Origin: Eledone cirrhosa
Lineage: Eukaryota
Direction: 5' to 3'
Assembly: GCA_964016885.1 (NCBI GenBank)
Contig: OZ024743.1
Location: forward strand, 288,114,001 to 288,178,000
DNA: 64,000 bases
Shown here in pieces: positions 8,069 to 56,560 of this stretch; position 1 is the stretch's first letter, and each line of letters opens with the position of its first letter. A model generated the notes under the pieces. That model searched no databases. It worked only from the letters and a program-made list of their open reading frames with translations, and had not been told where the DNA came from. The position numbers were made by a program, and so were the translations under genes.

Positions 8069-8103
<35 letters not shown>

Positions 8104-8144
8104 GAGAGTAAAACAAAGAAGCCTTCAATACATCAAAAGTCTTT

Positions 8145-8189
8145 ATTAGCCGACAATGTTTCGTCCTATTAAGGACTCATCAGGCCAAT
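8145..8189 (-). ncRNA. Type I minimal hammerhead ribozyme (imperfect stem I)
   Basis: Minus strand reads attggc CTGATGA GTCC ttaata GGAC GAAAC att GTC ggctaat. Confidence 0.8.
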
Positions 8190-9727
8190 TAGAACAACAA
8201 GAAGTAATATCGGCAGATACAAGCCGGAAGCTCCGAAGAATATGGAGTGTACATACACTAAAGTATTGCAAAAATATATAATACAAATAATAAAAATATA
8301 TAATAAAAATAATAAAAATTACTAAGGATGTATATAACATTAAGAACCATATTACAAATATAGTCCAAAGCAAAAAACCTAGAGCTAAACAAAGGTGGTT
8401 ATATAGAGCAGGAATTATATATAATACAATGTAATATAATTTAATATACCTTTACCAACATTAAAATTACAATAAAAATCAAAAGGTACAATATGCATAT
8501 GTATATATGTGCGCACACGTACACACACATACACATACAACAATACACACATCCATCTTCAACTGCACAAATTAAACCTTATTAAGAGTTTGAATATAAA
8601 AATAAGCATGATATGAATGAAAATGATAATAATAATAATACTAATACATCTACCCAATATACATGAGGTAATAATATGATATAATTATAAGTAGCACATA
8701 TAATAAATAATAAACAATACAATTATATACTATATAATACAATATAATAGAATGGATAATCTCCGGTTAATTTACACAAACAATATAGATGTCACAATAA
8801 TAATATAATAATAATATACTAACATTTATAATATACAATATACTAACATTTATAATAAACAATATATAATGGTACTCAAGTTAACAAATCAATTCATACT
8901 GGGTTACAGAGTAGGTGAGGAAAAATAAATTGTACAATACCCCCAAAAAAATTTTGATGGTACAAAAAATATACAAACATCTTACATGATATATAAAGTT
9001 TAACATATCATAATGTTACATATAATTAACGGTAAGTAATAAGGATCAATATTACAATAAAAAATACAATATAATATAATATATTATATAAAATAAATTA
9101 ACATAATATAATATATAATTACTTATAATTACAAGGTTGGTAGACAGACATGTATATGGATGAGTGAGTAAGTGCCAGACAGTAAATATAATGCACAGTA
9201 GTATTACAAATAAAATGTAAAATATAAAATATAGAATAAATAAATAAATAGAATCAACCGGAAATTAAAAAAACAAAAACAAACGTATACATTTAGGTCT
9301 CACATGCAGTTAAGTAGTTAAGTAAAAACTAAGGAAATAACCCCGGTAAATGACTCGAAAACCCTATTTGATAAATTAATATTAAAAATATTTAAACTAT
9401 CCAATAAGGCAGTATAATATTAGCTATAGTTTAAGTAATTAAAGTTTATAAATGTTAATATTTCGTTACAAATGTTTATTAAGGTAAAGGTATATTAAAT
9501 TATATTACATTGTATTATATATAATTCCTGCTCTATATAACCACCTTTGTTTAGCTCTAGGTTTTTTGCTTTGGACTATATTTGTAATATGGTTCTTAAT
9601 GTTATATACATCCTTAGTAATTTTTATTATTTTTATTATATATTTTTGCAATACTTTAGTGAATGTACACTCCATATTCTTCGGAGCTTCCGGCTTGTAT
9701 CTGCCGATATTACTTCTTGTTGTTCTA

Positions 9728-9772
9728 ATTGCCCTGATGAGTCCTTAATAGGACGAAACATTGTCGGCTAAT
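9728..9772 (+). ncRNA. Type I minimal hammerhead ribozyme
   Basis: attgcc CTGATGA GTCC ttaata GGAC GAAAC att GTC^ggc(t)aat. Intact core; predicted cleavage after 9765. Confidence 0.85.
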
Positions 9773-10433
9773 AAAGACTTTTGATGTATTGAAGGCTTCT
9801 TTGTTTTACTCTCTTAATTTTTCGGCTATGTTTAACTACCTTGAGCTATACCTTTTACTGTCATTTCTATAATACGAAGAGGGTGTTTAACTCCAACACG
9901 CTCCAGTATTTTAGCCCTTATATATATATATATTTAGGTATATACATACATACATACATACACACACACATATATATAAATATATATATATTTATATATA
10001 TGTATGCGCGCGTGTGTGTGTGTGCATGTTTGTCTTGTAGGCCACCTCAACTCTGCAATTTTAATATATCAATAGCTATTATTTATTTTAATCTTTTCTC
10101 TAAGACTATAATTAATATGACGATTTCAGGGATTTAAAGAATTAAAGATTTAAGATAAACTTGCCTCCGTTTGAACATTATTAATAGAAGAACGAATTAG
10201 TTCCCTTCCTTTTCTAGTACTGATAAACGGGAATGCGTCCTATAAGTTATTTAACTACAAAGAAGTATTGCCGATATGACAGATATAATAATATTAATAT
10301 TTTCCTTCGTATTTAACGAATTTCTACCTGTTTTGACCTTTGCAAAGCAAAGCACCCTCTTTTTGCACTTTTTCCCTTGATATTTTAAAATATTTCCACC
10401 AATTTTAGTTTTTCTAGAACACACACACACACA

Positions 10434-17881: not shown

Positions 17882-17952
17882 GATGTGTTGGTGTAATGGT
17901 AGCACATTGGTCTGGATAACCAAAGATGTGGGTTCGACTCCCATGTATGTCA
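17882..17952 (+). pseudogene. tRNA-like cloverleaf (anticodon GGA); probable pseudo-tRNA or retroelement head
   Basis: D arm gtgt-aatggta-gcac, anticodon arm TTGGT-ctGGAta-ACCAA, T arm GTGGG-ttcgact-CCCAT. Acceptor stem mostly G.U, no long variable arm, T5 run about 10 nt downstream. Confidence 0.6.
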
Positions 17953-23132: not shown

Positions 23133-23400
23133 TATATATATATATATATTTATATGAGTCCCGGGTTCAAGAGAAAAAAACTCTTTTTAGAAATATAGAC
23201 AATAGTACAATGACACAGATAAAACACACTCAAGTACCCCCCCCCCTCCTCACACACTCATATATACGAACACCCACCCATTTCAAGGTTCATTTATTCT
23301 AAGTAAACAAAAGGGTTTATGAGTGATTGATAATAGTTGTGAAGGTGGTGGAATTTGTAATAACAGCCATGACATATATATATATATATATATATATATA

Positions 23401-24110
23401 GTGTGGTGGCTCTACGGAATTTAATATCCTTGATCATCTTGAAGAGGTCTTCCTCAAATGGTTGGAGTAGGCTGTTGGTGGGTGGTGTCTTATTCGTTTT
23501 GAAGCCGAACTTCTCATCATTGGTAGATGCTACATCAGGGTTGTCGAGGAAGAAGGCCCTCCATCTAATTCGCTTGATGAACTCGTCGGTACGTCTGATG
23601 AGTGTTTTTAAGTATAGTTTCCTTGGAGGGATAGGGATGTTCTTCAAGGAAATATCAAGGTCGAGTTTGGTCAGCATGGTTTCTTGATGATGGTTATAAG
23701 GGGCACAGAGAGTGCTAAAATGTACGTTATTCCGGGTTGAATCGGAGGTAACCACAGTAAGTAAGGTACTCAATACATAGCAGAGTATAACAGTTTTAAT
23801 ATAGATGAGATTCTACAGGACTAGAACTGTTTCATTCATTAGAAATCATCAGGAATCTGGGTATCAAAAAATAAATATGGTATTTATAGGTCTCTACAAG
23901 TGGTAGGAGAGGGTGGGGAGTGGGATGGGTGCAGGTCATTGGTTGATAGAAAAGGGAATTCATTAAAAGCTAATTCTACAAAGCTATAGTTAATTTTTAT
24001 TTTTATTTATATTTATTTATGTTTTTAGAGTAACAAAGGCAGACAGAATTCTATAAACAGGTTCCGGATGGCATACCATTCCTTGTCAATAAGTTTCTCT
24101 TAAGCTAACA
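23401..24110 (-). mobile_element. PLE fragment (Neptune-like): pLTR with HHR running into the ORF N-terminus
   Basis: MLTKLDLDISLKNIPIPPRKLYLKTLIRRTDEFIKRIRWRAFF...KFGFKTNKTPP resembles PLE ORF N-termini. Cut off by (TA)n at 23401. Confidence 0.75.
23808..23858 (-). ncRNA. Type I hammerhead ribozyme, intact
   Basis: AGATTC CTGATGA T TTC taat GAA T GAA ACAG ttctagtc CTGT A^GAATCT: 6-bp stem I, 4-bp stem III, GUA triplet. Confidence 0.9.
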
Positions 24111-55397: not shown

Positions 55398-55883
55398 ATA
55401 CATGCACATATATATATATATATATGTACGTATGGGTTTGCCGAACATTTATTATAATGTTCGGTTTGTTTGTAAACAAACAGCCTGAATTACGCCGTAC
55501 AGTGTTCAGGCAACCATCGTCGCCTTTTTGTTCAATACTGACACAGGAACGATGTACTAGTTTCAAGCTTATTAGCTATCGTCAGCATCGTATACCTTTC
55601 TGTCAGATGGTTTCATTATGCATATTAACGGCTGAGCAGCCTAATTTGCATATCGAGTGAGTTAGTCGGCCGGGCGCACCGAAAACGATAAATAGAAAAA
55701 AATGAAACGAAATTTCATTTCTCACTCTTTGTACGGCTGATACTTAAGTGTAAGTATGTATGTACACGCACATGCATATATGTATACAGACGTACAGTAG
55801 TATGTATATATATATACATACATGCACACACATATATATATGTACGTATGGGTTTGCCGGACATTTATTATAATGTTCGGTTT
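55398..55883 (-). mobile_element. Second locus of the retrozyme-like family (417-nt unit plus terminal redundancy)
   Basis: Homologous to 27410-27870. gtacgtatgggtttgccg.acatttattataatgttcggttt recurs at 55426 and 55843. Confidence 0.8.
55550..55590 (-). ncRNA. Type I minimal hammerhead ribozyme
   Basis: Identical to 28063-28103. Confidence 0.9.
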
Positions 55884-56092
55884 ATTAATTCAACTATAAC
55901 AATTATTATGTAAAATATTGATTGTTTTTTGTAGTTGATTTTTTTTTGTATTAAAAAGTCTGAAAATACTTTTATACATCTTACAATAATATTTATAAGA
56001 TCCTTTATAAAATAACAATTATATAATCTAATTACATTTCAACGATAATTTATTATTAATATATATCATGTTGCCTTAAAAAAATATTAAAT

Positions 56093-56540
56093 TAGACCTG
56101 AAAAATGCGCAAGCTCAAAAGAGCCACAGCATGTTATAATAAACCTTCAAAAGTGTGGCACTAGAGTTGTTGCTCAAAAATATTGTAATCATTATCTATC
56201 GTACACTCTGTGGCACCCTTTTATAAAAAAGAAACACATAACGAACTCAAGACGACACGATAATTATTTAAGTAAATTTATAATATAGAATTCGGTTTAA
56301 GTGCATTTCGTATTAATCATTACTAAACATCTAATATGAGATAATAAACATTAGCTTAAATAATTATCGTGTCGTCTTGAGTTAGTTATGAGCCTCTTTT
56401 TTTATAAAAGTATGCCACACCACACAGTGTACGATAGTTAATGATTACAATATTTTTTAGCAACGACTCTAGTCCCACACTTTTGAAGGTTTATTATAAC
56501 ATTCTGTGGCTCTTTTGAGCTTGCCCATTTTTCAGGTCTA
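56093..56540. repeat. Diverged foldback with about 180-bp arms and about 80-bp spacer
   Basis: tagacctgaaaaatg.gcaagctcaaaagagccacag...acgataattatttaag (56093-56272) mirrored at 56354-56540. Confidence 0.85.
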
Positions 56541-56560
56541 GTATATATATATATATATAT

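Follow-up and report, generated by a model that had tools for sequence, protein, structure and literature searches.

A 1.16-turn copy of a hammerhead-bearing repeat in Eledone cirrhosa and the probable Penelope-type footprint of its family

In the window, that is, the whole 64,000-nt stretch of DNA that was analysed, a copy of a retrozyme-like unit lies inside another repeat, here called the host repeat. The features of this locus, and a sister locus of the same family in the window, are the following.

55300–55397: host repeat, left part
55397–55886, predicted RNA on the minus strand: retrozyme copy of 1.16 turns, running through unit positions 27 to 448 and then 1 to 96 on the plus strand
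55397–55470: redundant stretch, first copy; at the left junction 1 nt (C) is common with the host repeat
55549–55591, minus strand: type I hammerhead motif, read from the sequence
55630–55661: most conserved 32-nt box of the unit (unit 285–316)
55688–55690, plus strand: site B of the two family start sites (unit ~344), located inside this copy, a putative start of reverse transcription
55688–55750: 63-nt "tail" between sites B and A
55751–55753, plus strand: family start site A (unit ~407), also internal in this copy
55817–55886: redundant stretch, second copy, which is the start of the next turn; at the right junction TTT(ATT) is common to the copy and the host repeat
55881–56550: host repeat, right part
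27395–28523: sister locus, about 1.7 turns on the plus strand followed by 0.88 turn in an inverted arm whose end is near site B

Mapping against the 448-nt unit at 27436–27883 showed that the copy consists of one 416-nt turn and about 70 nt of the next, the period being set by unique anchors at 55426 and 55842. The first-pass annotation had described a 417-nt unit followed by a direct repeat of its first 60–70 nt. This redundancy is real, and its two stretches differ by four substitutions and one 4-nt change within a TA tract. The end had been placed at 55883, which is fair given that the last 3–6 nt (55881–55886) are common to the copy and the host repeat. The indels reported relative to the 27-kb locus are also present, as deletions of 8 and 22 nt and smaller changes. 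None of the other spacers compared carries the 22-nt deletion. Inheritance from a common master was rejected, since this deletion and those of other copies differ in their breakpoints.

The copy is 3.5% diverged from its closest relatives and no open reading frame of at least 120 codons lies over it. It carries a single hammerhead, so that release of a monomer from it is impossible; two consecutive hammerheads define an active copy in a 2026 preprint (10.64898/2026.07.22.740005). Two or more tandem hammerheads are found at the 27-kb locus, which is flanked by TA/TG and TC/TA tracts, and at other loci. Neither a TA flank nor an inverted arm is present at 55397–55886, and the left end of the copy matches neither family start site; 33 of 198 family segments fall into the same class. 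Among contigs from three sequencing runs of one sample, none spans the copy. Altogether, the copy is likely a decaying dead end.

In the predicted hammerhead, stem I pairs 55591–55586 with 55554–55549, and the core motifs are CUGACGA (55585–55579) and GAAA (55564–55561). Stem II has 4 bp with a U.U at its base, stem III is a 2-bp palindrome (ACUAGU), and cutting would occur after GUA, between 55555 and 55554. At the Rfam gathering score no hammerhead was found in 55397–55886: Hammerhead_HH9 reached 19.4 bits (E 0.05), below the cut-off of 52. The call is thus based on the core motif and the helices read from the sequence. miRNA matches obtained in Rfam at a relaxed threshold corresponded to TA/TG simple sequence and were discarded. 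The fold of the whole unit is more stable than those of 100 shuffled versions (z −5.6), and the minimum free energy structure of the isolated monomeric motif contains no full hammerhead (z −0.70).

The identity of this hammerhead to the one at 28 kb, already pointed out in the first-pass annotation, holds over 56 nt (55543–55598 and 28056–28111). The same region differs from the two other hammerhead copies at the 27-kb locus, and the chance of two copies being identical across 46 nt at the observed rate is about 9%. From the identity it had been proposed that conservation of the ribozyme suggests selection, and a comparison of substitution density between the hammerhead and the rest of the unit bears this out only in part. 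Total changes are lower in the hammerhead, both among copies picked outside it (5.9% against 6.5–10.9% elsewhere) and in a third set of 60 loci picked by their B end (4.2% against 6.0–7.8%). However, when subfamily columns are removed, the copy-private changes are alike, with 2.4% in the hammerhead and 2.3–3.2% elsewhere; in the third set the respective values are 3.2% and 2.6–5.0%. Since private changes are as frequent in the hammerhead as in the rest, genomic copies decay neutrally. What supports the claim is that subfamily differences spare the invariant catalytic core. They concern N7 (41 C, 33 U), loop II, H17 (66 A, 10 U) and a single pair of stem I (G.U 45, U.G 19, A-U 4, C.U 4). The core is intact in 58 of 75 copies chosen outside the ribozyme. 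Polymorphic columns number 5 of 46 in the hammerhead and 55 of 278 elsewhere, a difference that is not significant alone (P 0.22). Constraint on the hammerhead is thus visible only between subfamilies. This pattern suggests that a functional motif is probably maintained in the source elements, whereas genomic copies degenerate.

The surroundings of the copy tell more about how this particular locus arose. At 16 of 18 other host-repeat loci (two of the loci compared, L139 and L143, are the same place), both flanks are joined by 356–415 nt that are missing at 55397–55886. The flanks are therefore one other repeat, joined elsewhere, and the redundancy holds no host DNA. A local tandem duplication including host flank, which the first-pass annotation had named as the finding that would speak against its reading, was looked for, and no host flank lies in the redundancy. 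Comparison with the empty site revealed no target-site duplication. The host repeat itself gave 812–909 first-look candidates and contains an inverted repeat of about 470 nt (56084–56550).

We suggest that the right end of the copy is likely the point of 5′ truncation, and that the left end likely reflects a deletion, at or after insertion, which would have removed the start site together with about 380 nt of the host repeat. It is possible, if somewhat doubtful, that the copy is instead filler DNA captured at a double-strand break, independently of an endonuclease. Microhomology would have primed it on retrozyme RNA or DNA, and the same event would have deleted the host sequence. Such an origin would concern this locus and not the family. 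It would suit a copy which has neither family start site, no TA flank and no target duplication, which lies where 356–415 nt of host repeat were lost, and whose junctions have microhomologies of 1 nt and 3–6 nt. Against it, a single later deletion accounts at once for the absence of the start site and of the host DNA. As with other far ends, the host DNA at the right junction is AT-rich, and the copy is as diverged as its relatives, which leaves time enough for trimming.

To place the locus in a wider context, we turned to the family as a whole. A 32-mer from the hammerhead has 3,827 exact matches in the 3.0-Gb genome, and a 32-mer from the box outside the hammerhead has 6,369, with no match for the reversed control in either case; the family thus has a lower bound of 6,369 exact anchor matches. 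Its copies are dispersed over many contigs, and its units, about 415–510 nt long, are non-coding. For mapping we used 130 loci, namely 30 best hits, 50 picked by the hammerhead and 50 by the box. The third set, picked by the B end, was reduced to 59 loci after L194 was dropped (it has no B end near the edge). Apart from the 30 best hits, all loci were sampled within the initial 103 Mb of a single contig and represent a small part of the family. After overlaps were removed, the two anchor sets comprised 94 insertions with 143 segments. Copies longer than one unit make up 59 of these 94 insertions, in sets that favour long copies, and 15 of the 59 B arms; two or more turns are present in 11 of the 94. 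One long array, L125 (774–6239), has 8 anchors in tandem and an inverted arm of 2 turns, and its units differ chiefly by private changes (5–23 each in 437 columns). An overlapping duplicate alignment of L125 was excluded from the rare-allele and mosaic analyses and included in the strict analysis of ends and turn divergence, the subfamily assignment and the nearest-neighbour distances.

When starts and ends were plotted on the unit, as the first-pass annotation had proposed, the starts proved to be fixed at two sites 63 nt apart and the far ends scattered. Among the 143 segments, the ends corresponding to the RNA's 3′ end (the plus-strand starts) fell at unit 341–380 in 58 cases and at 381–440 in 63, and the opposite ends lay all round the unit. 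A strict classification of 198 segments gave 73 B ends, 68 A ends, 22 within TA, 2 doubtful and 33 other. In the raw junctions both start sites are preceded by (TA)n: a TA-repeat flank accompanies 45 of the 73 B ends and 33 of the 68 A ends. Genome-wide, there are 2,420 exact junctions of (TA)n with site B and 2,026 occurrences of the read-through form. Far ends lie within 10 nt of the predicted cut in only 2 of 141 A or B arms and 2 of the 59 arms of the B set, and 28 of the latter read through the cut. Had a linear cleaved monomer been the template, ends should pile up at the ribozyme cut, and they do not.

The inverted arms follow an equally regular pattern. Inverted junctions are head to head in 62 cases and tail to tail in 2. 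When the outward ends were assigned by position alone, a looser classification covering 43 pairs, 40 were A+B, 3 A+A and none B+B. The strict motif test of 60 head-to-head pairs yielded 34 A+B, no A+A, no B+B and 26 with an unclassified end. From the other direction, 35 of the 59 B-end copies have an inverted arm, whose end is strictly A in 21, ambiguous within TA in 6, other in 8 and B in none. In 8 of the 59, all with an inverted arm, the B arm stops at unit 388–406, where the A arm starts, which hints that both primers were on the same RNA. The two arms usually belong to one subfamily, being 4.6% apart against a median of 8.8% (29 pairs), with L014 as an exception. A young autonomous Penelope family of the same genome shows the same TA target and one long and one short end at four head-to-head loci (L151, L155, L167 and L181).

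The 32-nt box lies outside the ribozyme, on the 3′ side of site B on the RNA. It contains no subfamily column and is conserved at least as well as the hammerhead. Inside it, at 55644–55651, is ATTTGCAT, which we take to be the octamer motif. The box is partly retained in a distant family. Similarity to the unit is seen in two distant hammerhead repeat families, L186 1974–3958 (69% over unit 259–377) and L257 149–1075 (65% over about 247 nt). Both TAATTTGCATA and the sequence of site B are retained in L186, suggesting a common signal. The protein-binding region of the Penelope-like element PAc occupies a comparable position relative to its starts, and by this analogy our guess is that the box might serve in binding of the reverse transcriptase or as a promoter.

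By every feature that could be tested here, the family belongs to the metazoan non-LTR retrozymes, with cutting predicted from the motif. We regard it as very probably a non-coding, non-LTR retrozyme bearing a Penelope footprint. For the locus, our preferred reading, with a probability of about 0.6, is a decaying retrozyme copy written by a Penelope-like reverse transcriptase, likely round a reiterated monomer RNA and most probably a circle. Transcription of tandem copies would proceed on the hammerhead strand; a monomer would be excised by two hammerheads and closed into a circle by a ligase. A Penelope enzyme would then nick (TA)n on both strands, and cDNA would be primed at two fixed internal sites, at B on one strand and at A, 63 nt further, on the other. 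The cDNAs would differ in length, and many of them would pass the ribozyme junction and exceed one full turn. Head-to-head copies would result when the two cDNAs are joined, and single copies when one is lost.

How the turns of one insertion resemble each other bears on the choice between a circle and a multimer. Consecutive turns differ by 4.3% at non-CpG sites (406/9,438), about twice the private rate. Rare alleles are shared between turns at 22 per 7,995 sites (2.8 per 1,000; 6 of the 22 come from L115) and between opposite arms at 19 per 9,915 (1.9 per 1,000), that is, 12–17 times more often than among same-subfamily copies elsewhere (0.16 per 1,000). Of 37 turn pairs, 36 are not mosaics of two subfamilies, the exception being L115, whose turns come from two. 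Only L014 was counted as having arms from two subfamilies, because the apparent arm mosaics in L023 and L028 are separate neighbouring insertions and that in L102 is an alignment slip. No two insertions share three or more ordered between-turn differences. Distances within an insertion relative to those to the nearest neighbour were set aside as a test of the template; they are uninformative, since the neighbour is chosen as a minimum. Many subfamilies contain multi-unit copies. With internal starts, each round of copying from a linear template would lose about one turn, so that such subfamilies would need a step that restores length. Taken together, the shared rare alleles, the scarcity of mosaics and the multi-unit subfamilies favour a reiterated monomer as the template, which was probably circular rather than linear.

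A competing explanation keeps the same element and a Penelope-type enzyme and assumes that the template is the uncleaved linear transcript of a long young tandem array, with a hammerhead that is slow or serves another step. Read-through of the cut site in 28 of 59 arms is equally expected under it. The predicted ribozyme fold is weak, the motif has a 2-bp stem III and a U.U in stem II, and in PMC11167929 uncleaved RNA was the dominant substrate of PAc in vitro and cleavage was dispensable. Moreover, arrays of 8 or more units exist, as in L125, and might act as linear masters; there is one mosaic insertion (L115), and shared alleles can also be obtained by local duplication or conversion. This explanation nevertheless appears unlikely to us, because it has to face the excess of insertion-specific rare alleles, the want of insertions with common ordered differences, the expected shortening of linear copies in each generation and a catalytic core spared by subfamily changes. 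Far less probable is that the unit is no more than a pseudo-LTR, the remnant of an autonomous Penelope element after 5′ truncation. The end structure and the position of the hammerhead relative to the 3′ end are as in the autonomous family. Yet the tandem units run head to tail with no open reading frame between them, 64 flanks past the far ends have no common continuation (the few pairwise matches start in differing contexts), and no pseudo-LTR homology was found to two young Penelope families, the best alignment being TA simple sequence. The least probable origin is a DNA-level satellite or local duplication, produced by slippage or unequal exchange and carrying an incidental hammerhead. TA-rich simple sequence in the unit and the existence of arrays would fit it, but the repeat copies here are 416 nt apart, non-adjacent and without host flank, and the family is spread over many contigs, its ends are fixed and polar, and it shows A+B inversions. 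It was ruled out for the family by the fixed strand-specific ends and for the locus by the empty-site comparison.

Within the preferred reading of a monomer template, a more specific and more tentative version may be considered, in which the family records Penelope integration on circular RNA. A dimeric reverse transcriptase would hold the circle by the conserved box, prime at B and A on opposite strands and roll past the ligated ribozyme junction. If true, it would explain together why pseudo-LTRs are inverted, why the tail is on one side and why copies are in tandem, and it would provide genomic evidence for animal retrozyme circles as a template of transposition. Circular templates for over-unit copies have already been proposed (PMC4209133, PMC7229834). 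The first-pass annotation had likewise stated that copies longer than one unit fit reverse transcription on a circular or multimeric template. This fits the family, including its read-through into the next unit, but is overstated for the copy at 55397–55886. That copy is a poor witness, as its left end is no family start and some 360–415 nt of host repeat were lost. Its length of 1.16 turns says little, given that it begins at neither family start site and stands in place of about 380 nt of another repeat.

Metazoan non-LTR retrozymes have been proposed to be non-autonomous derivatives of Penelope elements (10.64898/2026.07.22.740005). As described there and in PMC7229834, they share with our family the non-coding tandem unit, a range of 150–450 bp, a single type I hammerhead in each unit, dispersed copies by the thousand from monomers to multimers, a self-paired fold and co-occurring Penelope elements. 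A 2-bp helix III and a U.U at the base of helix II are likewise described for the axolotl HHR_Amex2. For metazoan retrozymes, expression, cleavage and circles have been demonstrated, whereas for the family presented here they are predictions. In the same preprint 8 of 9 retrozyme dimers did not cut, so that a motif does not equal activity. Relative to the parts of these papers on which we draw, our data contribute counts: two fixed starts, TA targeting and A+B inversions.

Penelope-like elements that bear an endonuclease offer the closest parallel for the ends. For PAc, two internal starts of reverse transcription bound the tail, both strands are cleaved and the target is AT-rich (PMC11167929). 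Partial tandems, inverted 5′-truncated copies, a tail often at one end and (TA)n targets are described in PMC8557442. Like PAc, Naiad, Neptune and others, our family has partial tandems, 5′ truncation, an inverted 5′ arm and a one-sided tail. It also resembles Penelope-like elements in its two internal starts, AT or (TA)n target and hammerhead with a palindromic helix III upstream of the starts (PMC11167929, PMC8557442, PMC4209133). It differs in having no open reading frame, a tail of 63 nt instead of 30–40, and an element that as a whole is the repeat unit; the frame for reverse transcriptase and GIY-YIG that autonomous elements carry between pseudo-LTRs is present neither in the copy nor between units. 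Chlamys-type non-autonomous elements such as MRC1 are protein-free too, with multi-copy head-to-tail insertions forming pseudo-LTRs (PMC8557442). In that description, however, they have no canonical hammerheads and their 3′ end resembles that of partners, and no such partner was found here in the two Penelope families. Plant LTR retrozymes (PMC7229834 and the 2026 preprint) are also hammerhead-bearing non-autonomous retroelements, and circular RNA is a feature of the plant elements. The 1.16-turn copy mimics an LTR layout. Still, plant elements have a type III hammerhead, LTRs, PBS/PPT and 4-bp target duplications, none of which was seen here (PBS/PPT judged by eye), and in our hammerhead, unlike type III, helix I is the open helix.

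We found no published study in which the ends of retrozyme insertions are mapped or A+B pairs counted, though supplements or Repbase may hold the family; the main text of the octopus repeat paper PMC13282606 makes no mention of ribozymes. The locus itself is ordinary; what merits attention is the statistics of the family's ends. With its 445-nt unit inserted thousands of times, the family provides a countable record of Penelope-type insertion, in which two start sites serve one strand each and the turns appear to be copies of a single monomer. It makes testable the origin of inverted pseudo-LTRs with their tail, and the use of circles as templates. A short RNA and intact Penelope enzymes encoded in the same genome suit such tests.

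Two young Penelope-like families are represented in the window. On the minus strand, 36131–37957 is a 5′-truncated copy of a very young autonomous family, with reverse transcriptase and, at the C terminus, a GIY-YIG-like region; all 72 scored matches are 99–100% identical and there are 45,693 first-look candidates. Its full open reading frame has 1,217 codons, its pseudo-LTR of about 630 nt carries a minimal hammerhead, and three alternative 3′ ends adjoin (TA)n. At 23294–23852, also on the minus strand, lie a hammerhead motif and the start of the open reading frame of the second family, which has 758-codon open frames and many copies 99–100% identical. Elsewhere, at L161, a young Penelope copy sits within an array of the retrozyme family, apparently in its internal TA tract.

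Other repeats in the window deserve a brief description. Inverted 358-nt repeats, 93% alike, surround about 1 kb at 8099–8456 and 9483–9818, and each contains a canonical-looking hammerhead, with cores at 8183 (minus) and 9734 (plus). A run of N at about 44660–44860, an assembly gap, lies within simple repeats. A short element with an internal inverted repeat occupies 55048–55219 between two (TA)n tracts, and related pieces occur at 16.5, 18.8, 22.2–22.5 and 30.9–31.1 kb. Finally, a tRNA-like sequence at 17882–17952 on the plus strand (Rfam 52.8 bits) may be a gene or the head of a SINE.
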